DNA of 24,934 bases from Anaerolineae bacterium. Its GTDB lineage: Bacteria > Chloroflexota > Anaerolineae > Aggregatilineales > Phototrophicaceae. Under the pieces are notes generated by a model. It was given only the letters and a program-made list of their open reading frames with translations. It searched no databases and was not told the DNA's origin. The stretch spans positions 1 through 24,934 of the forward strand of contig JACMMD010000833.1 of the NCBI GenBank assembly GCA_014379235.1, given 5' to 3'. Shown here piece by piece: positions 3,142-23,997 of this stretch. A program made the translations under genes and the position numbers. Position 1 is the stretch's first letter. Each line of letters begins with the position of its first letter.

Positions 3142-3156
3142 AATCGTCCTCGTAGA

Positions 3157-3525
3157 TTAGCTGATGTATTTAGAAAGCTTGCTGGCTAACTCGCGCAAGT
3201 CAATTGGCTTGGAGACGTAATCATCGCAGCCTGCTTCTAAAGCGCGCTCACGATCACCAACCATCGCATGGGCGGTGAGCGCAATGATGGGGATATGCTG
3301 TAGTTCAGGGTCGGATTTAATCGTGCGCGAGGCCGTCCAACCGTCCATCAATGGCAGTGATAAGTCCATCAGGATAAGGTCAGGCCGTTCACTTGCTGCC
3401 ATCTCCACGCCCTGTTCGCCATCAAACGCCTGAACGATGTCATACTCCAACGACTGCAACACGTCCGAAATTAACGTCATGTTGTCAGGATTGTCTTCAA
3501 CGACCAGAATGCGCCCGTTACTCAT
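3157..3525 (-). CDS. Single-domain response regulator (DivK/CheY-like), 122 aa
   Basis: VEDN, ILMDLSLPLMDG, ALTAHAMVGDRERALEAGCDDYVSKP; all receiver catalytic residues are present. The TAHAM..D signature is DivK-like. Confidence 0.95.
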   Translation of the reverse strand: MSNGRILVVEDNPDNMTLISDVLQSLEYDIVQAFDGEQGVEMAASERPDLILMDLSLPLMDGWTASRTIKSDPELQHIPIIALTAHAMVGDRERALEAGCDDYVSKPIDLRELASKLSKYIS

Positions 3526-3527
3526 CT

Positions 3528-5039: not shown

Positions 5040-5112
5040 AACAAGCGTACCATTCGTCCGCACACATGGCCACAAACCATAGTATATATTAAGCCAGCTT
5101 TACGCACATCTC

Positions 5113-5149
5113 AAAAAAGCGCGGTGTCTGTAATAGACACCGCGCTTTT
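5113..5149 (-). terminator. Intrinsic terminator after lepB and the Zn-finger gene (possibly bidirectional)
   Basis: Perfect 11-bp stem GCGCGGTGTCT/AGACACCGCGC (5119-5129/5135-5145), 5-nt loop, A6 on the left and T4 on the right. Confidence 0.85.
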
Positions 5150-5189
5150 GATGGTTTCGGTTGAAAAATACGCCGCAGCACAAGAGCGG

Positions 5190-5477
5190 CTAGGGCTTCA
5201 AACGCCGGACGTTATCCGCTTCTAGCGTATCGGGCTGGCTGCGCTTGGCCCCCTTGCGATCAGGGGCGCGTGTCGGCTCAGACTCACCGATGAGCGCTTC
5301 GATACGCATCACCGCTTCACGGTCAAATTCCTGGAAGCCGCATACATCACACGTCCATAACAGCACATCGGGAACGCTGACCGGCATGTTACCGATCATC
5401 CGCATGTACGTCGCCTGCGAGGGCTGGTAATGACCGATATGACAGTATGAGCACACGTAAGGCGATTTGTCGGTCAT
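5190..5477 (-). CDS. YgiT-type zinc-finger protein (stand-alone, no HTH), about 95 aa
   Basis: CSYC...CDVC pairs with the 'VSVPDVLLWTCDVCG.QEF' pattern. ATG 5477 follows a GGAGAGG RBS; the ORF track starts at 5510. Confidence 0.8.
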   Translation of the reverse strand: MTDKSPYVCSYCHIGHYQPSQATYMRMIGNMPVSVPDVLLWTCDVCGFQEFDREAVMRIEALIGESEPTRAPDRKGAKRSQPDTLEADNVRRLKP

Positions 5478-5502
5478 TTCGTCCTCTCCATTCATGAAGT
5501 AA

Positions 5503-6138
5503 CTAGTCATCAGGGTAGGCGATGTGGGTTACAAGTCCCCACTCTGACGGCGGCCAATAACGGACAAGCGCCTCGCCAACGATAAACTGCCGGTTTACCG
5601 TCCCGAAAGCGCGCGAATCGCTGCTATGGTTACGGTTATCGCCCATAACGAAATATTCATCCGGGCCGAGCGTCCACACGTCATCACGGCAGCGTCCGGG
5701 TTCGCAAGGTTCATTGATATAGGGTTCATCGAGCTGGACATCGTTTACATACACCAGCGTATCGCGGATTTCGACAGTATCGCCCGGCAGACCAATCACA
5801 CGCTTAATGTAATCTTCTTCGGGATTGCCCGGATAATGGAAGACCACAATGTCGCCGCGCTGCGGCTGGTCAAGCAGATAGTTCAAACGACTGACAATCA
5901 AGAATTCGCCCGTATGGAAGTTCGGCTGCATACTGGGGCCTTGAACGATGAAACGCGCACTGGCCAAATTCACCAGCGAATAGATCGCGGCGATCAGCAC
6001 CAGCGTGTCGATGATTTCACGCATAAAGCTGCGACGCTGGAGTTTAGGGCGTGGCGTCGTCACTTCGGCAGTGTCCGCATACTGCTGCGGTGCTTGAACT
6101 TGCGGTTGTGCAGTCGGTTGGGTTGAAATTTCTTGCAA
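5503..6138 (-). CDS. lepB: Signal peptidase I, 211 aa
   Basis: One TM helix, GPSMQP (catalytic Ser), RGDIVVF, YIKRVIGLPGD (catalytic Lys), GDNRNHSSDSR. TTG start. Confidence 0.96.
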   Translation of the reverse strand: MQEISTQPTAQPQVQAPQQYADTAEVTTPRPKLQRRSFMREIIDTLVLIAAIYSLVNLASARFIVQGPSMQPNFHTGEFLIVSRLNYLLDQPQRGDIVVFHYPGNPEEDYIKRVIGLPGDTVEIRDTLVYVNDVQLDEPYINEPCEPGRCRDDVWTLGPDEYFVMGDNRNHSSDSRAFGTVNRQFIVGEALVRYWPPSEWGLVTHIAYPDD

Positions 6139-6180
6139 GATGTGGGCTGGCTATCAATCTAAAAACGATCAAGTTTATTC

Positions 6181-6209
6181 ATTATAGACCTGTCGCCTAG
6201 AACGAACAA
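6181..6209 (-). promoter_or_regulatory. Candidate sigma70 promoter for lepB
   Basis: Minus strand TTGTTC (6209-6204), 17-nt spacer, TATAAT (6186-6181). Confidence 0.55.
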
Positions 6210-6347
6210 TGTGCATTTGAAGAGCGTTTGCCGCGTCAATAATTTTCTAATGGTCTGCCCAGACGAATTCAATGCGAAAAACCGCACTTCTACATATACT
6301 AAAGGCAGTAGTACATTCCGAAATATACCGTAACAACGAGGCAATAC

Positions 6348-7919
6348 TTGGCTGGTGAACGAATTCTAGTGGTTGATGACGGACGCGAAAACCGCGAATT
6401 CGTGGTTGAATACGTCCTGCAACCCAACGGCTATGAAGCGCTTGTGGCGAAAGACGGCAGAGAAGGTCTCGATATGGTGCTTAAGCATCAGCCTGACCTC
6501 ATTCTGCTTGATTTGCAAATGCCGCGCATGAACGGCATCGAAGTGTTGCAAGCGTTGTCCGAACGTAATCTCGATATTCCCGTTATTTTGATGACTTTTC
6601 ATGGCTCGGAAGAGGTCGCCATCGAGGTTTATCGACTCGGTGTGCGCGACTATGTGAAGAAGCCCTATTCGGTGGACGAAATGCTGGCGGCCATCGAGCG
6701 CAGCCTGACCGAAATCCGACTGCGGCGTGAGAAAGAAGCGCTTACCGAGCGCGTTATCTATGCCAATCGTGAACTGCAACAGCGGGTTCAAGAACTCAAC
6801 GTCCTCTACAGCGTCGGTAAGAACGTCACCGCTTTAGCTGACCTGAACCAACTGCTGCCCAACATCGTCGATGCCGCCGCGCAAGTCACCCACGCGGAAG
6901 AAGGCTACCTCTACCTGACTGAAGAGACGATATTACGCTGTCGGGCGCAGAAGCGTGTGAACAAGGCCCGCGCCGAAGCCGCCGACTTTGAAGCGAAAGA
7001 CCGTATCGCGTTACACGTCGCGCAGACGGGGCAAGCGATGATGCTCAATCCTGAACAATTGAACACCAGCGGCGTGGTTTCGCTGTCGTACACGCCGCTG
7101 GTGTTCCGCGAAAAGGCCATCGGCGTACTGGGCGTGCGAACCGTCACTGAAGGCGGGCACATCTTCACCAAGCACGACAGTGCCCTGCTGAGTGCCCTGT
7201 CTGATTACGCCGCGATTGCTATCGAAAATTCGCACAACTTCGAAGAACTGCAAAAGACCAGAGAGCGTGAAAGCGCGCAAATCCGCAGCACGTTCAAGCG
7301 CTTCGTACCGCCCTCTGTCGTAGACCGCGTGCTCGATCATCCCGAAACTTTGGAGCTTGGTGGCGCGCGGCAAGAAGTCACGATTCTGTTCGCGGACATT
7401 CGCGGTTACACCGCATGGGCCGAACATGCCCCGCCCGAACAGGTCATTGAAGTCCTGAACAATTACCTGAGTCTTGCCGCCGAAGTTGTTCTGGCGTGGC
7501 AGGGTACGCTGGATAAGTTCTTTGGCGATGGGCTGATGGCCATCTTCAACGCGCCCGATCAACAAGAAGACCATGCCATCCGTGCCGCTGTCGCCGCATT
7601 AGACCTTATCAGTGTGGCGAAAGAAATGTCCGAACGGCGCGGTTACAGCCTGTCGTTTAGCGTGGGACTGCATCTGGGCGAGGCTGTCGTCGGCTACGTA
7701 GGCACGGCGCAGGCCATGAACTACACCGCCATTGGCGACGTAGTGAACCTCGCCAAGCGGATTCAAGAACATGCCGCGCCGGGCCAAATTCTGATCACCG
7801 ACACCGTGCATGAACAGCTTGGGGAATTGGCGACCTCGCAACCGCTTGGTCAGCTCAAATTCAAGAACCGCCAACAGCCAGCAACAGTGTACGAGTTACA
7901 AGACATCAAGAACGACTAG
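6348..7919 (+). CDS. Receiver + coiled coil + GAF + class III adenylate cyclase, 523 aa
   Basis: REC: VDD, LLDLQMP, MTFHG, KKP. GAF: IVDAAAQVTHAEEGYLYL...PLVFREKAIGVL...LSALSDYAAIAIEN. Cyclase: LFADIRGYT, DKFFGDG, NYTAIGDVVNLAKRIQ. TTG start with GAGG RBS. Confidence 0.93.
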   Translation: MAGERILVVDDGRENREFVVEYVLQPNGYEALVAKDGREGLDMVLKHQPDLILLDLQMPRMNGIEVLQALSERNLDIPVILMTFHGSEEVAIEVYRLGVRDYVKKPYSVDEMLAAIERSLTEIRLRREKEALTERVIYANRELQQRVQELNVLYSVGKNVTALADLNQLLPNIVDAAAQVTHAEEGYLYLTEETILRCRAQKRVNKARAEAADFEAKDRIALHVAQTGQAMMLNPEQLNTSGVVSLSYTPLVFREKAIGVLGVRTVTEGGHIFTKHDSALLSALSDYAAIAIENSHNFEELQKTRERESAQIRSTFKRFVPPSVVDRVLDHPETLELGGARQEVTILFADIRGYTAWAEHAPPEQVIEVLNNYLSLAAEVVLAWQGTLDKFFGDGLMAIFNAPDQQEDHAIRAAVAALDLISVAKEMSERRGYSLSFSVGLHLGEAVVGYVGTAQAMNYTAIGDVVNLAKRIQEHAAPGQILITDTVHEQLGELATSQPLGQLKFKNRQQPATVYELQDIKND

Positions 7920-9441: not shown

Positions 9442-10047
9442 ATGCCAATTCGAGCGGTTGTTTTTGACATTGGCGGTGTGCTGGAAATCACGCCCAACCT
9501 CAGCATGATTGAGAAGTGGGAGCAGCAGCTAGGGCTAAATCCCGGCGAAATTATGATACGCTGCGAAACACTCTGGCACGATGGTAGTATCGGCACGATT
9601 TCAGAGGCAGACATTCACAAAGCTATTAGCGCGCTTCTGAGCATAGATAGCGCGCAAGTTGAAGCGTTTATGGCCGATATGTGGATAGAGTATCTTGGTG
9701 AACTCAATGCTGAACTCACCGACTACTTTCGCGGTCTGCGATCACGCTGCCAAACGGCTATCCTCAGCAACAGTTTCGTCGGCGCAAGGGAGCGCGAAAT
9801 CGAGCGCTATCACTTCGATGAAATGACCGACCACATCATCTATTCGCATGAAGTGGGGCTGTCCAAGCCGGATCGACGCATTTACGAATTGACCTGTGAA
9901 CGGCTGAACGTGCAGCCAACCGAGATGATTTTCGTCGATAATGTCGAAGCGAACATCAGTGCCGCCCGCGAGTTGGGTATCCACGCTATTCTATTCAAGG
10001 ATAACGCGCAGGCCATCGCAGACATAGAAGCGCTGCTGCAAGGCTAA
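9442..10047 (+). CDS. HAD-superfamily hydrolase (YihX/sEH-N-like phosphatase), about 201 aa
   Basis: Motif I FDIGGV, motif II LSNS, motif III KPDRRIY, motif IV FVDN. ATG 9442 follows AGGA; the ORF-track extension from 9247 overlaps der and is unlikely. Confidence 0.9.
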   Translation: MPIRAVVFDIGGVLEITPNLSMIEKWEQQLGLNPGEIMIRCETLWHDGSIGTISEADIHKAISALLSIDSAQVEAFMADMWIEYLGELNAELTDYFRGLRSRCQTAILSNSFVGAREREIERYHFDEMTDHIIYSHEVGLSKPDRRIYELTCERLNVQPTEMIFVDNVEANISAARELGIHAILFKDNAQAIADIEALLQG

Positions 10048-11366
10048 TTGTCGCTATCGTCGGTAGCTTCAGGGGTTGTTTCCGGTGGAGCTTCGGTCTC
10101 GACTTCGAGCGTTACAACTTCGGCTTCGATAATCACCACATCAATTTCAACCGGAAGGATGGCGATGTCATCCGGCGATACCTGCCCGCCGCTGATGGCC
10201 GCGACAGGCGCAACCTGATAGCTGCCTTCAACGCGACCATTCAAATCAACCGCCGCCCGGATGTTGGACGGCACAAGCAGGTCAAGAAGCGGCTGCGGGC
10301 CGGTGACGATGACCGTCACTTGGCTGGGGACAAGGGTCGCGCTGAAACCATCTTCCAAGCCGATCACCTCGACAGGGATAGCGTCAAACGGACGACTGGC
10401 CGTCAGCGCCGTGATTTCGACGGATACCGTGACGTTTTGCCCGCTCACCAGAAATATATCGGGGTTCGGTAACTCAATCGGTACGGTCACTTCAAACGTG
10501 CCCGTGCGCCCTGCCAGATCAATTGGTGCGGTGGAAACCGTTCCCGGCAGTCCGGCCAGCACATCAGGCGGGCCGCTGACGAGTATAGTCTGCGGTTCAT
10601 AGGTGAACGACACCATCTGATAGCCGTCCGGCAGCGAGCCTGTGAACTCACCCGGCGTCACACGTACTTCACGGAAATCCGCCCGCGAACGAACATCCAC
10701 ATTCACATGAACAACCTGCGGGTCAAGCGTCACATCTGTAACCACATTGCCATCGGCGTCAATAGGCACAGGGCGAACGTCATCTTCAAACGGGGCGCGC
10801 ACGCCGCCAAGATCAAGCTCGACATTGGCAGCAACCACTTGTTCAACCTTGCTGACTGCTCCGCTCACTTCTAGCTGGGCCACATCGAACACCGGATTAT
10901 CGCGCTCAAAACCAGCGGGCGGCTCTTGTGAGACGATTCCCACTACCGGAATATAACGTTCTCGCGCTTCTTCCAGCGTGACCGTGATCTGACGCGGCAG
11001 CGTATCGGCCACGACCACCTGCTCACGCGCCACCTGCCATTGCAGTTCGACAACGTGTGTACCCGGCCCCAAGCCGCTGAGATCGGCCCATAGTACGATG
11101 TCGTCGGTGGTCAGTAGATCAAGCACCGAACTCTGCGCCCGAACGATCACGCCAGCGCTGCGCGTCGGTGTGTTGGTGATGAGCAAACCCTCGTCAGGCT
11201 CAAGCTGTACGGAAACCCGATCCGGTAAACGCTCCTGCTGAATGGGGTCTAGCTGCGAAGTAGCCAATACCCACACGAAAAACGCCAGTATCAGCGAAAC
11301 CAGAAACCACATCAAATTGTTGACGAGTACGGGGCTGAGTGGGATTAATCTCGATTTGCTCTGCAT
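10044..11366 (-). CDS. cdaR: CdaR / YbbR-domain regulator of diadenylate cyclase, about 440 aa
   Basis: N-terminal TM 'NNLMWFLVSLILAFFVWVLA', repeated beta-rich YbbR-like units (e.g. YEPQTILVSGP, VPSQVTVIVTGP), located directly after cdaA. ATG 11366 avoids a long overlap with cdaA. Confidence 0.88.
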   Translation of the reverse strand: MQSKSRLIPLSPVLVNNLMWFLVSLILAFFVWVLATSQLDPIQQERLPDRVSVQLEPDEGLLITNTPTRSAGVIVRAQSSVLDLLTTDDIVLWADLSGLGPGTHVVELQWQVAREQVVVADTLPRQITVTLEEARERYIPVVGIVSQEPPAGFERDNPVFDVAQLEVSGAVSKVEQVVAANVELDLGGVRAPFEDDVRPVPIDADGNVVTDVTLDPQVVHVNVDVRSRADFREVRVTPGEFTGSLPDGYQMVSFTYEPQTILVSGPPDVLAGLPGTVSTAPIDLAGRTGTFEVTVPIELPNPDIFLVSGQNVTVSVEITALTASRPFDAIPVEVIGLEDGFSATLVPSQVTVIVTGPQPLLDLLVPSNIRAAVDLNGRVEGSYQVAPVAAISGGQVSPDDIAILPVEIDVVIIEAEVVTLEVETEAPPETTPEATDDSDN

Positions 11367-11385
11367 AGCTTCGCGCTGCCCGGCC

Positions 11386-12252
11386 CTAAGCCTGATTCCG
11401 TTCGGGGCGCAGGCGATTGCGGATTTCATCAGCCCATTCACGAACGCGGGCCCACATGGGTATGCTCGGCTTACGCTCAGGGTTATACAGGGCGTTGAGG
11501 ATGGTTCGCAGGCGTTTGGGGTCAAGGCGCGGGATCATGCGCCCGCCGTCGGTGATAGCGATTTTGCCCGTTTCTTCGGAGACGACGACGCAAATCGCAT
11601 CGCTCACTTCGCTGATGCCGAGCGCGGCCCGATGGCGTGTACCGAGCTTGCGATCTGGCAAGTTACGGCTGGCCGTCAGGGGCAGCACCGAGGCCGCCGA
11701 AGCGATGCGCCCGTTACCGCTGATAATGGCCGCGCCGTCGTGGAGTTCGGTTTTCGGCCAGAAAACGGTCAAAAGAATTTGCGAACTCACTTCACTGTCC
11801 AGCGGAATACCCGTGCGAATATACTCTTGCAGGCTGCTGTTACGCTCCAAAACGATCAGCGCGCCATGCCGACGCTCTGATAATTTCTCCGCTGCCTGAC
11901 AAATGTCTTCAATGACTTTGGCGCGCAGGGTTTCCGGCGGACGACGGTTGTTGAGCAGCACTCCGGCGCGGCCTAAGCGCTCTAAGGCGCGGCGCAGTTC
12001 CGGTTGAAAAATCACCGGAATGGCCACGGCCAACACCGTCAGCGCATTGCCGAGCAGCCAACGCAGAGCCAGCAGTTGGAACACGTTGGAGACAACCACC
12101 ATGCCCGCCAGCACGATCACCATGCCGCGCAGCAGCACCACAGCCTGCGTCCCGCGAATGAAAAAACTCGCGCCGAAAAAGAGCATCGCCACGAGTAAAA
12201 TGTCGACAATGGCGGTTGGCGTTAGGTTGCTGATTGCCCAAGCCAGTTCCAC
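11386..12252 (-). CDS. cdaA: Diadenylate cyclase CdaA (DacA), 288 aa
   Basis: N-terminal TM helices, FQPELRRALERLG, GALIVLER, HDGAAII (DGA motif) and GTRHRAALGISE (RHR motif). GTG start. Confidence 0.96.
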   Translation of the reverse strand: MELAWAISNLTPTAIVDILLVAMLFFGASFFIRGTQAVVLLRGMVIVLAGMVVVSNVFQLLALRWLLGNALTVLAVAIPVIFQPELRRALERLGRAGVLLNNRRPPETLRAKVIEDICQAAEKLSERRHGALIVLERNSSLQEYIRTGIPLDSEVSSQILLTVFWPKTELHDGAAIISGNGRIASAASVLPLTASRNLPDRKLGTRHRAALGISEVSDAICVVVSEETGKIAITDGGRMIPRLDPKRLRTILNALYNPERKPSIPMWARVREWADEIRNRLRPERNQA

Positions 12253-12402: not shown

Positions 12403-14667
12403 TCAGCGCGCCGGGTTCGACCCCGTAAGCTGGGCCAGCAGCTTGAGGTAATCGTCGATGCCATCCGGCTTGAGGGCGATGATCTGGCGAATGGTGTTGA
12501 TCGCATCCTGATGCAGCCCTGCTTCGAGTTGAAGCTCACCCAGCGCGTCAAGCTGCATGATGGCATCTTTCTTGCGCCCTAGCTGGCGATAGATGGCCGC
12601 CAAACGCGAACGCAGTCCGGTATCGTTGGGGTACAACGTCACCAGTTCTTCGAGCAGTTGCAGGATGCGGTTGACCTGCTTGTTCTTGGCGTAGATGCTC
12701 AACAGTTGGTCAAGCCGCTTGACGGCCTCAACCTGATTACCCTGCCGATAGTTGAGGTCAATCAGCATACGCCGCGCCCGCTCGTCTGTCGGCGCAAGCT
12801 CAACAATTTCTTCGTAAGCCTTCTGCGCCCGACGCAGGTCAAGGCGAATCTGGTCGATGTCCGCGAGACGGTGCTTGATACGCACGATCTTGTCCGTGGA
12901 TGCACCGACACGGTTGGCCATGCGCTCCGCCAGCGTGAAAGTATCCCGCGACATCTCGAAGTTGCTCAACTGGTGATAGGTGTCGGCAAGATCGATGTAT
13001 TGATCGAGCGCTTCATCCCAGCGTTCTTCGGTTTCCAGCAGTTCAATCAAGCTCTTGCGGATCGAGATATCGAGCGGTGCACTCTCCAACACTTCGCTGA
13101 GGATGGCGGTGGCGCGGTCATTTTCGCCGCGCACCATGTAGGATTTAGCGACAACATTGTACTTGGTGATCGCTTGGCGAACACGCCCTTCACGCATCAT
13201 GACATCTGCCATACGAATGTGTACGGGTAGATACAGTGGCGAAAACTCGACGGCGCGGTGAGCCTCGTCCATCGCCAGCGTATACAACCCCTGCCGGATA
13301 TGGCGATCAATGCGCGAGACCAAGCGCGTGAGTTCATCACTGCGGCTGGCGACCAGAATATCAATCGCGCCCTGTTCGCCTTCCTCTTTCATGGTCTCTT
13401 CAAGCTGGCGGCGCGTCTCGATAATGCGCTGCTTCCAATCCAGCCCTTCGAGCAGGCTGTTGAAGCGGCGGTTGACCGCTTCGAGCGCGTCGTCGGGGCG
13501 AGCGTCCAGCGCATCCTGTAAGCGCTTATACATCGCGCTGATCTGCTTAACTTCGTCATCGGCCAGCGCATCCATGCTGTCTACCGTTTGGATGCTCTGA
13601 ATCAGATAGCGCATAGCTTGACGCTGCTTATGCATCAGGACATGCGCCATACCAAGCGCGTGATATGCGCCTGCCGCCAACTCTGGTTGGTTGGTGGCAT
13701 CGTTCAGATATCGAATCGCGGCTTCGGGCTGTTCACGCAGCAGCAGCAGCGCGCCGAGACTCATTTTCAACGCGGGATGCCGCAGTTTGGCATCGGCACG
13801 TTGATAGGCTTCAATCGCTTCGTCAAAATATTCTTGTCGTTGTAATTCCATGCCTTGCAGTGCATCGCCGCCCGCCGCATCCAAGCGCCCACTTTCGATG
13901 ACGTGAGAGGCCAACATGCCGAGCGCCAAACCCATTGCCTCGCCCAATGGGCCGAGTGGATTGGAATCGCTGATAACCTGCGCGTCTTCAACTTCCGCAA
14001 ATAGATCGCTAAAACCCGCCCTGCTGCGCTGCTCGGCGTGGCTGTCACCGCCCTCGTCATCCGGCGGCAAAATCGTACCGCCCGTCTCCAACGCCCGCAG
14101 CGTGTTCAATGCCTGCGTGTTGCGACGGTCTAAGCGCAAAGCACGGTGAACCGCTTTGGTTGCCTTATCGTTGTCGCCTGCGCGATGGAAGTTGAACGCC
14201 AGCATCAGGTATTCTCGGATGGCGCGCTTCTTATCGCCAATGCGCTCGTAAGCCTGCGCCAGCTTGGCATGGATGCCGATCAAACCCGGCGTCAAACGGG
14301 TTGCCCGTTCCCAATTGCTGATCGCTTTATCAAGATCGCGCTGTTGCAGATACAGTTCCGACACGTTGACGTACTGCTGCGCTGCTTCACGCAGGCGGCC
14401 CATACGTTCCAGCACATCGGCGCTTTTTTCTAGCGGAATGGGGTCTTCGCGGGAAAGTTGATGGGCGCGTGTATACACACGCAGCGAATCTTCTAACCGC
14501 CCCATTTCCAAAAGCGCGAGGCCCAGATGGTTATGCGCGTCGGGGTCTTCCGGGAACTCTCGGATGGCCTGACTATAGGCTTGAACTGCCGAAGCCCAGT
14601 TCAAATCCCATGCAGAACTATGGCCCGCGTTCATGGCGTTTTCGTAGGCTTCACGATTTCCCGGCAT
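12403..14667 (-). CDS. Large tetratricopeptide-repeat protein, 754 aa
   Basis: Repeated TPR patterns (AVQAYSQAIREFPEDPDAHNHLGLALL, AISNWERATRLTP, AQKAYEEIVELAP) in N- and C-terminal arrays separated by an acidic linker. No signal peptide evident. Confidence 0.9.
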   Translation of the reverse strand: MPGNREAYENAMNAGHSSAWDLNWASAVQAYSQAIREFPEDPDAHNHLGLALLEMGRLEDSLRVYTRAHQLSREDPIPLEKSADVLERMGRLREAAQQYVNVSELYLQQRDLDKAISNWERATRLTPGLIGIHAKLAQAYERIGDKKRAIREYLMLAFNFHRAGDNDKATKAVHRALRLDRRNTQALNTLRALETGGTILPPDDEGGDSHAEQRSRAGFSDLFAEVEDAQVISDSNPLGPLGEAMGLALGMLASHVIESGRLDAAGGDALQGMELQRQEYFDEAIEAYQRADAKLRHPALKMSLGALLLLREQPEAAIRYLNDATNQPELAAGAYHALGMAHVLMHKQRQAMRYLIQSIQTVDSMDALADDEVKQISAMYKRLQDALDARPDDALEAVNRRFNSLLEGLDWKQRIIETRRQLEETMKEEGEQGAIDILVASRSDELTRLVSRIDRHIRQGLYTLAMDEAHRAVEFSPLYLPVHIRMADVMMREGRVRQAITKYNVVAKSYMVRGENDRATAILSEVLESAPLDISIRKSLIELLETEERWDEALDQYIDLADTYHQLSNFEMSRDTFTLAERMANRVGASTDKIVRIKHRLADIDQIRLDLRRAQKAYEEIVELAPTDERARRMLIDLNYRQGNQVEAVKRLDQLLSIYAKNKQVNRILQLLEELVTLYPNDTGLRSRLAAIYRQLGRKKDAIMQLDALGELQLEAGLHQDAINTIRQIIALKPDGIDDYLKLLAQLTGSNPAR

Positions 14668-15702: not shown

Positions 15703-18468
15703 TTAAATCGCTTCCATATCGCGCCAGTTCGAGCCGACGTAGGCGTTAGCTTGAAGCGGCGCGTCAAGCTGCATAACGCCTTCCATCACCCCAAGAATCA
15801 AGTCGCGCACTTCGGTCACTTCTTTTTCGGGAACTTCCAGCACCAACTCGTCATGTACCTGCAAAATCATACGCGAGTCGAGGTTGCGTTCCAGCAGCGC
15901 ACTATGCAGGTCGATCATGGCGCGCTTCATGATGTCCGCCGCCGTCCCTTGAATGGGCATATTGATAGCTTCGCGTTCAGCGGTGCGTACCTCTTGACGA
16001 CCCTTATTCTTACCGCCCTTCAAAATCGCAAAGTTTCGCCGCCGCCCGAACAGCGTTTCGACGTAGCCGAGTTCTTCGGCTTTCTGAATGGTGCCATCGA
16101 GATATTCACGCACACGCGGGAAGCGCTCGAAATACTTGCGGATGAAATCTTCGGCTTCGGCAAAGGTGAGGTTGCTATCCCGCGCCAGTCGATATGCGCC
16201 CATGCCGTACAAAACGCCAAAGTTCACACGCTTGGCGAAGATACGCTGATCTTTGGTCACTTCATCCATTGGGACACCGTAGACAATCGAGGCAGTCGTC
16301 GCGTGAATGTCTTGCCCCTGCCGGAAAGCGTCGAGCATGGTCGGGTCTTGGCTAATGTGCGCCATGATACGCAGTTCAACTTGGCTGTAATCCGCGCTCA
16401 ACAGCAGCTTTCCCGCTGGCGCGACAAACGCCTGCCGCACCTCGCGCCGCGCTTCGGTGCGAATGGGGATATTCTGCAAATTGGGATTGCTGCTGCTCAT
16501 ACGACCCGTAGCCGCGCCCGCTTGATTGAAGCTGGTATGAACGCGACCCGTTTCCGCGTTCACGAGCTGCGGCAGCGCATCAACGTAGGTGCTTTTGAGC
16601 TTACTCACCTCGCGGTATTGCAAGATGTAGTCGATGATAAGATGCTCGCCCTTGAGGTTTTCGAGGACGTGCGCCGCCGTCGAATAGCCATGCGTCGTGC
16701 GCTCAATGCCCTGCGTGGGCAGTCCGAGCTTGCCGAATAATAGGTCGCTCAACTGCTTGGGGCTGTTCATGTTGACCGCGCCGTAGCCCGCGCTGTGATT
16801 GTTGATTTCTTCTTGTAAGCCGCGAAGCTGCTCTTCGAGCCGCCCGCTCAATTCGCGCAGGAAAGCCACATCAACCACCACGCCCGTGCGCTCCATTGAC
16901 GCGATGACCGGAACAAGCGGCATTTCCAACGTGTTCAAGAGATCGGTGAGGCCATCTTGTTCGAGCGCTGGCTGCAATACTTCAAGCAAACGATAGGTCA
17001 TGGCAGCATCGGCGGCGGCATAAGGCGCGGCGCGCTCGATGGACACCTGATTCATGGTCAACTGCTTTTTGCCTGAGCCGATCAGTTCCTTGATCTCGGT
17101 CATTCTGATCTTAAGCCGATCAAAAACAACGGCCTTGAGGCCGATCTGCCCGACTGGATCGACCAACCACGCCGCCAGCATGGTATCAACGGTGATCGGC
17201 GCAACGTCGATACCGTAGCGCTGCAACATCACCAGATCGTAATTAGCGTTATGCGCGTACTTAGGGATATTCGGATTGGTGAGCGGCCCGCGCAGTGCAT
17301 CCAAAACGGTTTGCATGGGTAACTGCTGACCTTCATCGTGCGCCACCGGGATGTAGTAACCCGTTTCGCCATCCGTCGCCAGCGAGATGCCCACCAGCGC
17401 CGCCGACATTTGATCGGTGCCCGTGCTTTCGGTATCGAACGCGATACCCTGCGCCGCGTTGAGCGTCTCAATTAATGCGGCTAAACTGGTTGCGTCGTTG
17501 ACGATCACCGTCGGTACAACGGCCTCAGCGGGTGTCGCTTCGACAATTGCGCCCGCCGCCGCAAACAGCGGAAGTTGCTCATCCTGCGGGATTTTCAAGC
17601 GCTGACCTAACGAGCGGAATTCCAACTCATCGAACAACGCCAACACTCGCACCGCGTCAAAATCATGGGAGACACACGCGGATAGTTCTATGGTCAGCGG
17701 CAGATCGCATATAATTGTCGCCAGCTTGCGGCTGAGAAACGCCGAGTCGCGCCCTTCGATTAACTTGGACTGTAAACTCCCTTTGATTTCATCTATATGA
17801 TCGTAAATGCCCTCAAGCGTTCCGTACTGTTTCAAAAGCGTGGTCGCGCCTTTATCGCCAATGCCCTTCACGCCGGGGATGTTGTCGGACGTGTCGCCCA
17901 CCAGCCCTTTGTAATCGACCAACTGCTCCGGCTCGAGTTCGTATTCTTCGCGGAACTTGGCGACATCCCATAAGACCGACAAGAACGCATCGGGGCCTTT
18001 GCCTTTACCCGGTAGCTGCACGGTCACATGCTCGCCAAGCAGTTGCAGCAGGTCGCGGTCTCCGGTGACGATCCGCACATCGACGCCTTCTTCGACGGCT
18101 TTCATGGCGATTGTGCCAATCACATCGTCGGCCTCGTTGCCCTCTGAAATCAGCATCGGCGTATTGAACGCCTCGACCACTTGCATGATGCGCTCGATCT
18201 GCGAGGCAAGGTCGGACGGCATCTTATCGCGTGTGCCTTTGTATTCGCTGTACCACGTATCGCGGCCACTGAGGCCCGCGTCGAAGCTAATGGCGAAATA
18301 CTCCGGCTGATCTTTCTGGATGATGTCCAACATCGTGCGTGTAAAGCCAAACACGGCGTTGGTGAATTCACCCGATTTAGTGGTGAAGCTGTTGAGCGGC
18401 ATTCCGAAATACTGACGGTAGGCCAGCGAGTGGCCGTCAATGATGTAAAACATGGGGCGTTTAGGCAT
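15703..18468 (-). CDS. polA: DNA polymerase I (5'-3' exonuclease, 3'-5' exonuclease, polymerase), 921 aa
   Basis: IIDGHSLAYR, EADDVIG, GDTSDNIPGV; Exo motifs FDTES, HNANYD, YAAADA; polymerase motifs ADYSQVELR, KRVNFGVLYG, QVHDE. Confidence 0.98.
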   Translation of the reverse strand: MPKRPMFYIIDGHSLAYRQYFGMPLNSFTTKSGEFTNAVFGFTRTMLDIIQKDQPEYFAISFDAGLSGRDTWYSEYKGTRDKMPSDLASQIERIMQVVEAFNTPMLISEGNEADDVIGTIAMKAVEEGVDVRIVTGDRDLLQLLGEHVTVQLPGKGKGPDAFLSVLWDVAKFREEYELEPEQLVDYKGLVGDTSDNIPGVKGIGDKGATTLLKQYGTLEGIYDHIDEIKGSLQSKLIEGRDSAFLSRKLATIICDLPLTIELSACVSHDFDAVRVLALFDELEFRSLGQRLKIPQDEQLPLFAAAGAIVEATPAEAVVPTVIVNDATSLAALIETLNAAQGIAFDTESTGTDQMSAALVGISLATDGETGYYIPVAHDEGQQLPMQTVLDALRGPLTNPNIPKYAHNANYDLVMLQRYGIDVAPITVDTMLAAWLVDPVGQIGLKAVVFDRLKIRMTEIKELIGSGKKQLTMNQVSIERAAPYAAADAAMTYRLLEVLQPALEQDGLTDLLNTLEMPLVPVIASMERTGVVVDVAFLRELSGRLEEQLRGLQEEINNHSAGYGAVNMNSPKQLSDLLFGKLGLPTQGIERTTHGYSTAAHVLENLKGEHLIIDYILQYREVSKLKSTYVDALPQLVNAETGRVHTSFNQAGAATGRMSSSNPNLQNIPIRTEARREVRQAFVAPAGKLLLSADYSQVELRIMAHISQDPTMLDAFRQGQDIHATTASIVYGVPMDEVTKDQRIFAKRVNFGVLYGMGAYRLARDSNLTFAEAEDFIRKYFERFPRVREYLDGTIQKAEELGYVETLFGRRRNFAILKGGKNKGRQEVRTAEREAINMPIQGTAADIMKRAMIDLHSALLERNLDSRMILQVHDELVLEVPEKEVTEVRDLILGVMEGVMQLDAPLQANAYVGSNWRDMEAI

Positions 18469-18563: not shown

Positions 18564-18626
18564 TAATGCGGATTCCTCGTCAGCACTACCGTTTGCCCTA
18601 ACGTATCAACGCTCTACGATGATCGG

Positions 18627-19079
18627 CTAGAGACTTACCATAATATATGCGGTGGAAGTTGCTTCATCTGTCTGATCGATTAAGACTTGATACATAGTTC
18701 GATCATAGCATTCTCCACCCAAATATATCTCTGGGCTTTGGGGAGGTAACCACCAATTTGGCATCCACCATTCAGGTTTTGTGTGTTGAAAAGGGTTCGT
18801 CTGGCTATCAATATCAGTAAATCTGTCTCCACATAATCCAGCCAGAAGATTATCTTCACTTCCGCTTGTGAAGTCGAAGGCTACATAGATGGTTCGGCTT
18901 TGCCCGATACCGAGATAAAATGCGCTGAGATTACTCGCATCAGTCGGTATTGGAATGAATTCCTTAGCCAGATTGATGCTATATTGGGCATGCATCAAGT
19001 AGCCCGCAACTAGCACAAACACGAGCAGCAGAACGACAATCGCACTCTTTGTAAGTAGGCTGCGTTTTTGGCGCGGCAT
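18627..19079 (-). CDS. Hypothetical membrane-anchored or secreted protein, low GC, 150 aa
   Basis: Basic N-terminus plus hydrophobic helix (AIVVLLLVFVLVAGYL), two Cys, a PEWWMPNWWLP motif. GC is about 42% in three 60-nt lines counted, versus about 60% in polA. Confidence 0.7.
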   Translation of the reverse strand: MPRQKRSLLTKSAIVVLLLVFVLVAGYLMHAQYSINLAKEFIPIPTDASNLSAFYLGIGQSRTIYVAFDFTSGSEDNLLAGLCGDRFTDIDSQTNPFQHTKPEWWMPNWWLPPQSPEIYLGGECYDRTMYQVLIDQTDEATSTAYIMVSL

Positions 19080-19099
19080 GAACTTGGCTAACGGCTTGT

Positions 19100-21724
19100 C
19101 TACAGCATTCGCTCGAAGTTGATGAACTGCTGAATTTCTTCAAGGTCGAGTTCGCGGCCCGGCGTGATGACGAGGTAGCTGTCGGCCCACAGGTTTGATG
19201 GCTCAATCGTGGAATCCTGTGTACGGGCGATGTCCGCCGAACGACGCTTCAAATCGCGGATCAGTTCGGGCGGCGGCGTTTCGCCGGGAACGTCCGTCAC
19301 GAGGTAAACATAATCTTCCTGCACTTCAAGAACGCGAATCTGCCAATGCTGTTCGGCAAGCTGGACATTCAGGCCCGCGTGAATGGCTTCGGCGGCGCGT
19401 TCGCTCAAGCGGCCTTCACGGTCACGCAGCAGCCACACATAAGCATAAGCGGTCAGCGGCCCCACTTCTGGAGTCGCAGGCGTGGGCGTAATTACCATCT
19501 CTTGCGATGCACGAGCAGGCGGCGACACATCACGCGGCGCGGTCTGGTCGAGCGCTGGCGCGGGCTGCGTGATCTCCGGCGCGGGGGCTTCACTCACCGC
19601 CGTTGATTCGAGCGGCCTGAGAATTTCTTGCGATTCTTCGATTATAGGCGGCGCATCCGGCACAGCATCAAGCGCATCGAGCAGCCGATCTCCCTGCCGA
19701 CGGATTGCCCGCAGCGGCATGGTTCCAGCGAAGATCATCGACAGCGTGTACTCGGAATCGGTACGACGCGAGTACAGCATGTATTCTTTGCCACTGCTCG
19801 GCAGCGTGATAAAGCGAATGCGGGCCGCGCCTGTTTCCGCGTCCCAATCGTTGGCAATCGCATTGAGCAGGCTTTCCAAATCGGTGGAACTGAGATGCCC
19901 CGCGACGGCGATCACTTCGCCATCCCGCGACAGCAGCGATGCCTCAGCCGTGAGTTCAAGCGAAACCTGCGTCAAGCTCAACGCCATCTTCGCCAGTTCC
20001 GAATCTTCGGTTGGTACGGGTACATTGATGATCGGCGTATCGGAAGGATTGGCGCTTGAAATGGGCCACGCTTCTTCAACCGCTTCGATGGATTCAGCGC
20101 GTTGGTCAGTATCGGCAGATGCGTCCCATGCCCACGCTGCTTCGTCCCATGCATCGGTAGCAGGTACAGCAGGAACAGGCGGCGCAGCAGGCACTGGCGG
20201 TGTTTTGGGCGGCGTTGGCATCTTTGGTTTTGGCGGCGATTGCTCCGGCAGCGTGACAGGCGGCGCGGGGCGCGTCTGCTGTGATGGCAGCAATTGCTCC
20301 GTTGTCGAATCGCGGGCTTCCTGAATATCCTGTTCGAGCTGCTCTTCTTGACTTTGCGAAGGCCGCGTCGTCTGGCCGATCAAGTCAATCGTCGTATTGC
20401 CGAAATCCGGCACACCCGGCTCACGCAGAAAGTCCGGTTCGCGCACATAAAGATCAGCATCAGGCGGCAGAAGTTCGCCACGTTCCATGCTGGCGCGGAT
20501 TTCGTCCAGCGCGACCTCAATCGGTGTCGAGGTATCCATCGTGGCTTCGAGGATGAACTGAGCGGGAATAGCGTCTGCGGTGGCATTGATGTCAGCCCCG
20601 GGAGTCGTATCGGCATTTTCCAGATTGAGAGGCCGCGACGCTGTGCTGTCACTGTCGCCGCGATCTTCACGGCTTTCGTCGCGCATAATCGACAGCACGT
20701 TTTGAAAGCCGGAGTCGGCCACGCCCAACATCAAATCGCCAACCGTGCCGCTTTCCTCGAACAATGGCATCGGCGGTTCTTCTTCCGCCAGCCTGCGAAA
20801 CGTGGTCGATTCGAGCAGCGACTCCAGCAGGTCTTCGCCGGGACGACGCCGTTCGCCTTCGGTTGGCCCCTCCCCGCTAGACGCATCCGCGAGAATAAAT
20901 TCGATCAGTTGGCGGTGACGATCTGGCAGCGATGTGTGAGGTTGATCGCCGCGCATCGAGTCAACGAGTTCGTTGAAGCCGCTTCGATCCGCCTGCTTAA
21001 AGGGCGTGTTATCGCTGCCACCTTCCCCTTCGTCACCGAGCGCGGTTAAAACGTCCTCGAATTCCTGCCCGCTAGTCGCTTGCCCACCAATCACACGGAA
21101 CGGGCTAGGATCATCGGCGGCGGTTTCCTGCGGCGTGACAGGCGTATCTCCATCGTCAGGCGAAGGCGAGTCGAAAAAGTTCGACTCTCCGAACTGCGAC
21201 AACACGTTATCAAGGCTGGAAAATTCGGGCACACTTCCCGGCTGCTGCATATTGAGGTCGCCGGGATACAAATTGAAACGGCGCGGTGGAGCAGCTGAGG
21301 TTTCGTCTTCACGCGACGACTGCGGGCTGGCTTTGAAGTCATCCGCTTCAGGCCACTGTGTCTGCCGCACCTGTTCCAGCGCGGACTGAATGATCGGTAT
21401 CAGTGTGCGGGCAGTAATCGGCGTGTCGATCATCGCTTGCAAGCGCAGGCCGTTAAGGATAGCCGTATCGCTTTGGCGCGGGCTGACAATGATGGCGAGG
21501 TTCGGCTGCACGTCGCGCAGTTGGCGCACCAACTCGATGCCCAGTACGTCCGGCAGGCCAAAATCGACCAGCGCCACATCCTGCGGCGACTCGCGCAGAA
21601 AGTCTAAGCCAGCATCAACTTCGGTAAAGGGGAAAACCTCGTAGATGCCGGTTTTCTCCAACGCCTGCTTGAGCGTCACTGCGAATGCCAGATGGCGGTT
21701 GATGATAAGTATGCGCGTCGTCAT
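19100..21724 (-). CDS. Multidomain protein: atypical receiver + acidic/Pro-rich disordered region + Roadblock/LC7-like domain + inactive IS200-type (Y1) transposase fold, about 874 aa
   Basis: N-terminal REC (ILIINR, LVDFGLPD). About 450 low-complexity acidic residues. SLLSRDGEVIAVAG...EYTLSMIF (roadblock/profilin-like). C-terminal AYVWLLRDR...LEVQEDYVYLV...LIRDLKRRSA...LWADSYLV...EEIQQFINFE parallels IS200 TnpA. ATG 21724 preferred over 21760. Confidence 0.8.
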   Translation of the reverse strand: MTTRILIINRHLAFAVTLKQALEKTGIYEVFPFTEVDAGLDFLRESPQDVALVDFGLPDVLGIELVRQLRDVQPNLAIIVSPRQSDTAILNGLRLQAMIDTPITARTLIPIIQSALEQVRQTQWPEADDFKASPQSSREDETSAAPPRRFNLYPGDLNMQQPGSVPEFSSLDNVLSQFGESNFFDSPSPDDGDTPVTPQETAADDPSPFRVIGGQATSGQEFEDVLTALGDEGEGGSDNTPFKQADRSGFNELVDSMRGDQPHTSLPDRHRQLIEFILADASSGEGPTEGERRRPGEDLLESLLESTTFRRLAEEEPPMPLFEESGTVGDLMLGVADSGFQNVLSIMRDESREDRGDSDSTASRPLNLENADTTPGADINATADAIPAQFILEATMDTSTPIEVALDEIRASMERGELLPPDADLYVREPDFLREPGVPDFGNTTIDLIGQTTRPSQSQEEQLEQDIQEARDSTTEQLLPSQQTRPAPPVTLPEQSPPKPKMPTPPKTPPVPAAPPVPAVPATDAWDEAAWAWDASADTDQRAESIEAVEEAWPISSANPSDTPIINVPVPTEDSELAKMALSLTQVSLELTAEASLLSRDGEVIAVAGHLSSTDLESLLNAIANDWDAETGAARIRFITLPSSGKEYMLYSRRTDSEYTLSMIFAGTMPLRAIRRQGDRLLDALDAVPDAPPIIEESQEILRPLESTAVSEAPAPEITQPAPALDQTAPRDVSPPARASQEMVITPTPATPEVGPLTAYAYVWLLRDREGRLSERAAEAIHAGLNVQLAEQHWQIRVLEVQEDYVYLVTDVPGETPPPELIRDLKRRSADIARTQDSTIEPSNLWADSYLVITPGRELDLEEIQQFINFERML

Positions 21725-21731
21725 AAGCGAG

Positions 21732-21760
21732 ATTGTATAGCGCCCTACAAGTGAACGCAA
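21732..21760 (-). promoter_or_regulatory. Candidate sigma70 promoter giving a leaderless mRNA
   Basis: Minus strand TTGCGT (21760-21755), 17-nt spacer, TACAAT (21737-21732), 7 nt, then ATG 21724; no Shine-Dalgarno sequence. Confidence 0.5.
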
Positions 21761-21784
21761 ACGCTAAATCGGGTGAAATGCGAA

Positions 21785-21815
21785 GGGGCGCGGTACGAAT
21801 ATCGCACCGCGCCCC
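21785..21815 (-). terminator. GC-rich stem-loop, probable terminator of the lipoprotein gene
   Basis: Minus strand GGGGCGCGGTGCGA-TAT-TCGTACCGCGCCCC: 14-bp stem with one G.U pair; only a short U run follows. Confidence 0.6.
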
Positions 21816-21838
21816 TGTCCGACGATTCGTTCGGATGA

Positions 21839-23199: not shown

Positions 23200-23832
23200 T
23201 CAGCCAATCGGCTCTTTATAAACGACATAGCGGCCCATGTCATCGCCCTTGCCGATGCACGTCGCCATATCAACTTTGAACTCACGTCCGCCAGATACCC
23301 AACGCAAACCCTCTTGCAGCAGACCTTGACCCGCAAAGCAAACTGGTCGGTCTGTCTTACGCCCCCAACACATCGGGCAGCGTTCCAGCGTGTAGATCAG
23401 GCGGTCATTGCCTTCTTCATAAACGTTGGAGATTTGATCGGAGAACTGCGAGAAGATATTGGCCATCGCCGGGACGCCGATCTTCAGCTTGGCATTGAGC
23501 GGCAGCACCTTGAAAGCGAGGTCGCCCACGCCGGCCAACGCGCCGAAGCCCTTCAAGCCCTGCGCGAACGTCGCACGGCCAGCACGCAGTGCCAAACCGC
23601 GTCCGCCGCGTGGCCCGTACATATCTTCCAGCGCAATGTTGAGCGCGGTGAATTCTGCGAAGTCAAATCCCTTTTCCAAGTTGTCAATCGGGTAGTTGCC
23701 GACGTAACTCGCCAGCCCTGCCAGATTGAGAATAGCGTTGAGGCCATTCTTGCCCATGATCTCTTCCATCGCCTCGATGAAGATGCGGGCGAACTTGTTG
23801 GGATAGAAATATCCGCTCTTCTCAGGTGGCAT
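23200..23832 (-). CDS. V4R (4-vinyl reductase) domain protein, about 210 aa
   Basis: YGPRGGRGLALRAGR helix and C-terminal metal-ligand pattern CPMC...C...GLLQEGL...C. ATG 23832 follows a GGAGG RBS; the ORF track starts at 23883. Confidence 0.85.
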   Translation of the reverse strand: MPPEKSGYFYPNKFARIFIEAMEEIMGKNGLNAILNLAGLASYVGNYPIDNLEKGFDFAEFTALNIALEDMYGPRGGRGLALRAGRATFAQGLKGFGALAGVGDLAFKVLPLNAKLKIGVPAMANIFSQFSDQISNVYEEGNDRLIYTLERCPMCWGRKTDRPVCFAGQGLLQEGLRWVSGGREFKVDMATCIGKGDDMGRYVVYKEPIG

Positions 23833-23997
23833 CGTGCCTGATCCTCCGTTTGGTGAGTGAAGCCAACGCTGGCTTTGTCTCAATAATGCAATTTTCTACG
23901 GAAATGTTGCCCCCCTTAGAGGCCGCAAATTTAAGTATACGCCAAAAAGCCCTGTACGACGACAAAACAAAATTGAGGAACGAAGCGCGCCAAAATC

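Follow-up and report, generated by a model that had tools for sequence, protein, structure and literature searches.

Why does a bacterial protein built from signalling-type domains end in the fold of a transposase? The question is raised by a gene at positions 19100–21724, on the minus strand, of a 24,934-nucleotide stretch of DNA (hereafter the window; positions 1 to 24,934 of contig JACMMD010000833.1, assembly GCA_014379235.1) from an Anaerolineae bacterium of the phylum Chloroflexota. As to what the domain is, the answer is almost certain. The last 118 residues of the protein have the fold of TnpA, the transposase of the insertion sequences (IS) IS200/IS605, which was captured long ago by a receiver-Roadblock protein of the Anaerolineae and has lost all of its chemistry; the gene is a single-copy chromosomal gene under purifying selection and the co-oriented upstream neighbour of polA, which encodes DNA polymerase I (Pol I).

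The transposase fold and the protein that carries it

The fold had been proposed in a first-pass annotation of the window from five motifs of the IS200 TnpA pattern, and all five align as proposed to solved IS200 TnpAs (AYVWLLRDR with YHFVWIPKHR, EDYVYLV with PDHIHLF, LKRRSA with FKGKSA, LWADSYLV with LWTRSYFV, and IQQFIN with IKKYIE). The Pfam profile Y1_Tnp (PF01797), of the single-tyrosine (Y1) transposases, matches residues 771–881 over profile positions 6–119 of 121 with 40.1 bits (gathering score 23; E 4.8e-10). A phmmer search of the PDB sequences returns the Sulfolobus IS200 transposases 2f4f (E 4e-7) and 2ec2 first, followed by the TnpAs of ISDra2 and IS608. The NCBIfam IS200 equivalog NF033573 gives 39.1 bits, which is under its cut-off of 55.

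Residues 575–886 were modelled with AlphaFold2 (AF2) from a family alignment of 59 rows, with a mean predicted local distance difference test score (pLDDT) of 81. The model contains a beta-alpha-beta-beta-alpha-beta-alpha domain at residues 769–885 (pLDDT 92–98), joined to the Roadblock domain by a low-confidence Pro-rich linker. Foldseek places the IS200, ISDra2 and IS608 TnpAs at the top of the PDB matches (E 1e-7 to 5e-6; 2f4f at E 1e-7, probability 1.00), and the REP-associated tyrosine transposase (RAYT) 4er8 at E 6e-5. With VIA-align, 118 residues, helix alpha-D included, superpose on 2fyx at Z 13.7. The comparison with the Y1_Tnp family and its structures, which the first-pass annotation had proposed as a check, thus bears out its claim. 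Across the solved TnpAs (IS608, 2a6m/2vjv; ISDra2, 2xm3/2fyx; Sulfolobus, 2f4f/2ec2) the domain has the same beta-alpha-beta-beta-alpha-beta plus alpha-D fold with Z of 12–13.7 at 22–28% identity, and it has in common with them VW in beta-1, GW, LWxxSY, K-x-x-S at the start of alpha-C, and, as mapped by alignment, the Thr and Lys/Arg dimer determinants. What it is without is the histidine-hydrophobic-histidine (HUH) motif, the nucleophile Tyr and the Gln ligand.

The features of the gene are as follows. Residue numbers here and below are counted from TTG 21760 (minus 12 gives numbering from ATG 21724), and the residue-conservation counts are over 120 relatives.

19100–21724, minus strand: whole gene, 874 aa from the probable start ATG 21724; degenerate receiver, acidic and Pro-rich linker, Roadblock fold, apparently dead Y1 transposase fold
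21356–21718, minus strand: degenerate receiver (REC), aa 15–135, from Pfam PF00072 and alignment to Spo0F and KdpE
20006–21340, minus strand: long linker, aa 141–585, 12% Pro and a net charge of -57; the family consensus shows short conserved islands in it
19667–20002, minus strand: Roadblock/LC7 (MglB-like) fold, aa 587–698, from the AF2 model, Foldseek and VIA-align
19457–19666, minus strand: second, Pro-rich linker, aa 699–768, 22% Pro, pLDDT 43–49
19103–19456, minus strand: IS200/IS605 TnpA (Y1-HUH) fold, by all indications catalytically dead, aa 769–886 at the extreme C-terminus, from Pfam, phmmer against the PDB, AF2, Foldseek and VIA-align
19304–19312, minus strand: former HUH motif, now Tyr817-Val818-Tyr819, aligned to DHIHL of 2f4f
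19241–19249, minus strand: Lys838-Arg839-Arg840, the basic cluster with which helix alpha-C opens, in alignment with KGK of 2f4f
19124–19126, minus strand: former nucleophile Tyr, now Phe879, matched in the alignments by Tyr in 2f4f and 2fyx and by Phe in 2xo6 (mutant Y132F)
19112–19114, minus strand: Gln metal-ligand position of the class-1 'Y---Q' motif, now Glu883 (E in 60/120 and Q in 31/120 relatives)

The open frame extends to TTG 21760 (19100–21760, minus strand; 886 aa) and closes with TAG at 19100–19102. The true start is probably ATG 21724, because the family consensus N-terminus (M-x-T-x-V-L-I-I) and an 874-aa database copy agree on it.

The first-pass annotation had placed the domain in frame with a receiver and a roadblock-like domain in DNA of host-like GC content, and this holds on each count. 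The GC content of the gene is 0.59, within the range of 0.49–0.59 across the window. The receiver profile PF00072 matches residues 17–101 with 39.4 bits (cut-off 30.2), and Spo0F is matched at E 6e-6. The acidic pair DD of the receiver is replaced by Asn21-Arg22 in the window (N/H-R/G over the relatives), and the Lys by Thr113 (A/T/M/V); Asp66 is kept in 111 of the 120, and Ser/Thr93 is also kept (Ser93 in the window). Since the acidic pair and the Lys are lost, classical phosphorylation of the receiver, and control by it, is doubtful in this clade. The earlier description of a signalling protein therefore needs correcting: the receiver fold stands, and its phosphorylation pocket is degenerate. 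The receivers of the shorter receiver-Roadblock relatives look more canonical.

The linker at residues 141–585 is probably disordered, judged by its composition. The Roadblock fold that follows it has the topology alpha-beta-beta-alpha-beta-beta-beta-alpha in the AF2 model (block pLDDT 73–93). It resembles MglB (Foldseek to 6izw and 6hjm, E 4e-6 to 5e-6; VIA-align Z 12.2 to 6hjm_B) and a Streptomyces Roadblock protein (3leq, Z 11.3). The Pfam profile Robl_LC7 (PF03259) gives no match to the protein even at E 10, and the four PF03259 matches in the genome do not include this gene.

Catalytic residues, selection and history

In all characterised HUH enzymes both His residues coordinate the metal and are required (PMC3597680; PMC6006769). 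Q131 belongs to the metal site of TnpA as well (PMC6006769), and mutations of H64 and H66 and the mutation Y127F each inactivate IS608 TnpA (PMC3597680). In the window these positions read Tyr-Val-Tyr and Phe, at codons 19312–19304 and 19126–19124, exactly where the first-pass annotation had put them. The catalytic positions were compared over 237 relatives, and HUH is found in none of them. The first His position is mostly Tyr or Phe (His in 18, Cys in 3, Ala in 1), the second is Tyr in 236 and Phe in one, and the nucleophile position is Phe in about 200, Tyr in about 35 and Leu in one. The Gln position, four residues past the nucleophile, is mostly Glu or Gln, with Ala, Tyr, Asp and others also present. 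The conclusion already drawn from the window alone, that the Y1 domain is catalytically dead, is well supported by these comparisons: since HUH has become Y-V-Y, the domain would have no metal site and should be able neither to cut nor to join DNA.

Phe879 reproduces the Tyr-to-Phe change of the laboratory mutants Y127F and Y132F, which are inactive. Such mutants (IS608 Y127F/H64A; ISDra2 Y132F, 2xo6) were used to trap inactive TnpA-DNA complexes, and they still fold, dimerise and bind hairpin DNA. The clade of the window differs from them in that both His residues are replaced as well, the second never by Ala and always by an aromatic residue, the first mostly so, and in that the change is fixed across hundreds of lineages. 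W776, W806, Y819, W858, Y862 and F882 are invariant (120/120), and the C-terminal helix and loop, T-P-G-R-E-L-D-x-E-E-I-Q-Q-F-I-N-F-E-R-M, is nearly invariant and ends exactly at the C-terminus.

Eleven stand-alone TnpAs of 131–162 aa from other Chloroflexota served for comparison; ten of them have H-[VI]-H, the eleventh has Y-V-H, and all eleven have the Tyr. A stand-alone TnpA of 131 aa in another Anaerolineae family (L039; G644:C20:2700-3800) has Y-V-H with the Tyr kept, and its loss of the first His is the same as in the fused copies of family f94 (see below). This protein may belong to an IS copy that is decaying, or it may hint at what the domain looked like when captured.

The Y1 domain is well supported as an old and selected part of a host protein and not an accidental fusion, in agreement with what had been claimed for it. 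In the 5.6-Mb assembly (86% complete) the gene is the only match to PF01797. The reported lack of a tnpB gene is confirmed, as the four TnpB-type matches in the genome all lie on other contigs. The intergenic gaps on the two sides of the gene are 20 and 78 nt, so that there is no room for IS ends. The ratio of nonsynonymous to synonymous substitution rates (dN/dS; Nei-Gojobori) of the Y1 part is 0.137, 0.014, 0.030 and 0.022 in four close pairs, below 1 as had been predicted and equal to or below that of the Roadblock part. An exhaustive phmmer search with the Y1 domain alone yields 338 clusters at 50% identity. Among the best 150 of the 338, all but one have the match in a long protein or fragment, at its extreme C-terminal end; the sole exception, the top representative match P0122 (3125 aa, 26 stretches), is a repeat-protein artefact.

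In these respects the gene departs from the known members of the superfamily. IS200/IS605 TnpAs are stand-alone proteins of 130–160 aa, whereas the domain under study is the C-terminus of an 874-aa protein; they have subterminal hairpins, several copies and often tnpB, whereas the gene under study is single-copy with no IS ends or tnpB on its contig. RAYTs (TnpA-REP; 4er8) are likewise Y1 relatives turned into single-copy host genes. They retain HUH and Tyr, are active nucleases and monomers, and are flanked by repetitive extragenic palindromic (REP) hairpins repeated in the genome; in the gene under study the catalytic residues are lost, and the sole nearby hairpin is unique.

This inverted repeat, at 21784–21816 upstream of the gene, was the one hairpin for which repeats were searched. 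It occurs once in the assembly, which rules it out as a REP. The hairpin is GC-rich and 15 bp long (AGGGGCGCGGTGCGA/TCGTACCGCGCCCCT, gene strand); it separates the CARDB gene from the receiver gene and is probably the terminator of the upstream gene, without a T-run. A similar stem, AGGGGC...GCCCCT, stands at the same place in the orthologous locus L020 (7923–7947) and is not present in four other loci. After the hairpin, a promoter-like TTGCGT-N15-TATACA ends just 9 nt before ATG 21724, and this proximity suggests a near-leaderless transcript of the gene.

The distribution of the fusion was taken from two overlapping samples of about 400 genomes each, one of the phylum and one of the class, with family names coded. 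The full Roadblock and Y1 module is present in all 14 genomes of f1, the family of the window, and a fused protein of 430–600 aa, in the order receiver, Roadblock, long linker and Y1, in all 24 genomes of f2, where the HUH position reads Y-[LVI]-Q. The fused copies of f94 have Y-V-H or Y-V-Q with the Tyr kept, and one f7 genome has L-I-H with Phe. The architecture, the conservation of which across the Anaerolineae had been put forward as a check, is thus found in at least four families. Many other Anaerolineae families have a receiver-Roadblock protein of 256–330 aa only, without Y1 (including L014, L015, L018, L019 and L071–L089). As for the findings that had been named as grounds for abandoning the claim, none of the 237 relatives has HUH, and these tests were judged to turn out in favour of the claim; relatives without the domain do exist, and they call for a correction. 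On this distribution, the Y1 domain is an add-on to an older receiver-Roadblock core.

A maximum-likelihood tree places 23 fused domains on one side of a branch and the 11 true TnpAs on the other (support 73/91), with long stems to f1 and f2, and is consistent with a single capture of the Y1 domain. With the PolA tree as a proxy for the species, the best tree needs two changes in Y1 and the well-supported branches allow one. In the AlphaFold Database the two-domain module occurs in at least nine fold clusters, under automatic names only ('response regulator', 'IS200/IS605 family transposase', 'GGDEF domain-containing protein').

The polA neighbourhood

The strongest functional clue, one that the first-pass annotation had missed, is the conserved co-oriented adjacency to polA. 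Two features lie downstream of the gene in the window.

15703–18468, minus strand: polA, encoding the 921-aa DNA polymerase I; its place downstream, in the same orientation, is conserved
18627–19079, minus strand: open reading frame (ORF) separating polA from the gene; its 150-aa product has a membrane anchor at the N-terminus and no Pfam match

The linkage was assessed by tblastn of the PolA of the window against the DNA downstream of each homologue. In 11 of 16 f1-type loci polA lies directly downstream in the same orientation, no more than about 100 nt away, and in two more, the window among them, one gene intervenes. In f2 polA is directly downstream and co-oriented in 8 of 8 loci. The Y1-less receiver-Roadblock proteins have polA directly downstream in 11 of 23 loci, in families f97, f101, f133, f91 and f92. 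The identity of PolA between these lineages is 47–60%.

The 150-aa ORF is a strain-specific insert, because in a contig of a microbial-mat metagenome (run X2; 94–95% identical) window bases 18566–19086 (521) are replaced by 157 others (joint 18565>19087). No counterpart of it was seen in the loci with polA within about 100 nt, and direct adjacency of the gene to polA is probably the older state in the lineage of the window. Two 'RNA' soil runs gave fragments of 150–200 nt only, which are probably DNA and hence uninformative on co-transcription of the gene with polA.

The upstream neighbours differ between f1 and f2. In f1 a conserved upstream block consists of a radical-SAM/TRAM gene, a gene for a 227-aa protein, and then one for a Big_7/SH3_3/CARDB protein. 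Downstream of polA a tetratricopeptide repeat (TPR) gene of 754 aa (window 12403–14667, minus strand; also L063, L065, L066 and L068–L070) is syntenic in both families, after the ornithine/aspartate carbamoyltransferase gene in f1 and directly after polA in f2. Because the TPR gene is also syntenic, the conserved unit is bigger than a pair and comprises receiver-Roadblock-Y1, polA and TPR.

Some further observations concern the neighbourhood. The conserved 227-aa upstream gene (window 23200–23883, minus strand) has a faint V4R-like C-terminus (E 0.014), and a 54%-identical paralogue elsewhere in the genome (L021, 1934–2581) directly follows a canonical Roadblock/LC7 gene of 123 aa, which hints at a recurring Roadblock and V4R-like pairing. 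In the f7 genome (L017; G761:C1:83600-88300) a receiver-Roadblock-Y1 gene of 383 aa has no polA beside it and is flanked on both sides by endonuclease/exonuclease/phosphatase-like genes, as read by us from the sequences. Elsewhere in the window, positions 974–7919 carry several two-component genes, including a receiver-GAF-adenylate/guanylate cyclase at 6348–7919, and positions 10044–12252 the c-di-AMP cyclase CdaA with YbbR.

Proposed role and rival readings

It is proposed tentatively, and at somewhat less than an even chance, that the domain is a non-catalytic, probably dimeric module for anchoring or assembly on structured or single-stranded DNA in the context of Pol I. The dead Y1 fold, expected to dimerise in the manner of TnpA, would hold hairpins, gaps, or fork- or flap-like DNA, gripping them through the basic alpha-C helix K838-R839-R840, which is kept, and through the aromatic face that replaces the active site. 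The very acidic scaffold of receiver, linker and Roadblock domain would thereby be placed where Pol I works, in the processing of Okazaki fragments or in gap repair, and the degenerate receiver and the Roadblock dimer would provide regulation and partner binding. The fold, the loss of the catalytic residues, conservation, selection, the single copy and the polA linkage are shown; dimerisation, DNA binding and any contact with Pol I or the replisome are inferred. The whole statement, identity and mechanism together, is judged to be not far short of even.

The grip on DNA is suggested by alpha-C. In the RAYT-REP complex alpha-B and alpha-C form a positive surface that binds the hairpin, and alpha-C lies in its minor groove (PMC3479197). 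All fused types retain the motif K-[GR]-x-[ST] where alpha-C begins, and in the clade of the window it is enriched to K838-R839-R840 (108, 96 and 112 of 120). A rationale for the recruitment of a TnpA fold beside Pol I is offered by IS608 TnpA, which localises to stalled forks and, besides binding fork-like DNA, interacts with the beta clamp (PMC5027513). As for dimerisation, IS200-type TnpAs are obligate interwoven dimers (PMC3479197), and by alignment and residue spacing two determinants of the IS608 dimer map to residues of the protein, K18 to R779 (102/120) and T115 to T866 (97/120). A homodimer prediction from two copies of residues 760–886 and the family alignment reached 0.24, where the mark is 0.42, and this is no evidence either way. 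The hinge before alpha-D is Gly-Gly in IS608 (PMC3597680) and a nearly invariant T-P-G-R in the clade of the window; since it holds Pro where IS608 has Gly-Gly, alpha-D may well be fixed and not swinging. The C-terminal Q-Q-F-I-N-F was considered as a beta-clamp motif and dropped, as it matches QLxLxF only partly, lies inside the packed helix alpha-D, and is inherited from the TnpA I-x-x-Y-I.

Several observations weigh against this proposal. The Y1 domain of the window is acidic (net -10, pI 4.6; family median -7, range -16 to +1), unlike true TnpAs (net 0 to +9, with 10 of 11 at +4 to +9; pI 7.2–10.1), and generic nucleic-acid binding is weakened thereby; the whole protein is strongly acidic as well. 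All 11 TnpAs, and f2, f94 and f7 as well, have the IS608 interface residue P73, seven residues past the second His; in the clade of the window its position is Gly826, next to an invariant Pro825. No copy of the hairpin at 21784–21816, the only one searched for, occurs elsewhere in the assembly. The polA link is missing in the remaining 3 of the 16 f1-type loci, which have no polA nearby, and in half of the Y1-less relatives, and it is not exclusive, since the DNA directly downstream of the fused copies holds no polA in f94 (0/2) or f7 (0/1). The link belongs to the receiver-Roadblock core and not to the Y1 domain specifically, and part of it may be inherited gene order.

A close rival, itself a real though tentative possibility, is that the dead Y1 fold is purely a protein-protein module and binds no nucleic acid. 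It would then add to the Roadblock dimer a further domain for dimerisation or docking, and would build a polymeric or condensate-like acidic scaffold or dock a partner such as Pol I, the clamp or a small GTPase system. The acidity of the domain speaks for it, as do the nearly invariant C-terminal helix and loop, the Pro that suggests a fixed helix, and the interwoven dimers of the IS200-type TnpAs. Roadblock domains are moreover dimerisation and partner-binding modules, as in the MglB structures, and the genome holds three canonical Roadblock genes and small GTPases. However, the basic cluster of alpha-C is kept and even enriched, and the f2-type copies of the Y1 domain are basic (net +2 to +4, pI ~9).

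The DNA-anchoring proposal can be carried further, to a specific and as yet unlikely form, in which the receiver-Roadblock-dead-TnpA protein would be an undescribed Pol I accessory factor of the Anaerolineae. The former transposase domain would find hairpins, gaps or forks on the lagging-strand template, possibly with the beta clamp, and recruit or regulate Pol I in Okazaki-fragment maturation or repair.

Less probable still is that the adjacency to polA is inherited gene order without functional meaning, and that the protein has nothing to do with DNA and serves as a scaffold for polarity or of cytoskeletal type, as in the module of RomR, MglB and MglC. Its middle domain has the MglB fold, and the layout of a receiver, a long Pro-rich acidic linker and an MglB-like Roadblock domain recalls RomR with MglB and MglC, the polarity proteins of Myxococcus. 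The synteny that extends to the TPR gene in f1 and f2, and the lineages in which the polA linkage is absent, would also agree with it. But the protein differs from that system in being one polypeptide without a Robl_LC7 match, with a tail derived from a transposase and a place beside polA, and no GTPase gene adjoins it among the neighbouring genes in the window. The pair with polA persists at PolA identities of 47–50% with completely different upstream neighbours, the pairing recurs with the Y1-less protein in five further families, and the added domain descends from an enzyme of single-stranded DNA that targets replication forks (PMC5027513).

It is very improbable that the Y1 domain remains enzymatic through a rewired active site, in which, for example, a new Tyr would be a metal-independent nucleophile on DNA or RNA. 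The near invariance of Tyr819 (236/237) exceeds what simple decay predicts, and the relatives that retain Tyr at the old nucleophile position point the same way; against this, all characterised HUH enzymes need metal coordination by both His residues, and the position of Tyr819 is occupied by Gln in f2, and by His or Gln in f94, so that no new catalytic residue is shared across the fused family. That the fusion is recent and accidental, or that an IS200 insertion is decaying at the 3' end of a host gene as a pseudogene-like relic, would fit the 'transposase' and 'RayT' labels of relatives in the databases and the NCBIfam score under its cut-off, and is practically discounted by the recurrence of the same fusion in 338 clusters and several families, the many invariant positions, the dN/dS of 0.014–0.14, and the single copy without IS ends.

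The domesticated Y1/HUH transposases described so far, the RAYTs, are still nucleases, and the dead IS200/IS605 derivatives known to us stem from TnpB and not from TnpA. The closest concept is that of TldR and other nuclease-dead TnpB derivatives, in which an IS200/IS605 protein loses catalysis and the host keeps its binding ability. They differ in that the protein is another one (TnpB/RuvC, RNA-guided) and that their function has been demonstrated. Full-text literature searches found no receiver-fused, Roadblock-fused or catalytically dead TnpA, and no dead TnpA counterpart of the TldR-type derivatives. The family has been overlooked because the main survey of the TnpA-Y1 superfamily removed sequences without HuH and Y as non-functional (PMC6006769).

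For annotation, this means that hundreds of entries labelled 'transposase' or 'RayT' in the databases represent neither mobile genes nor enzymes. For the Anaerolineae, it would mean that a TnpA fold, joined to signalling-type domains, has been held in a purely non-catalytic state for hundreds of millions of years of their evolution. The tight linkage to polA suggests a lineage-specific factor of replication or repair, in a phylum whose cell biology is almost unstudied. If the protein is indeed an accessory factor of Pol I, a transposase that targets replication forks would have been turned into a part of the cell's own replication and repair apparatus.

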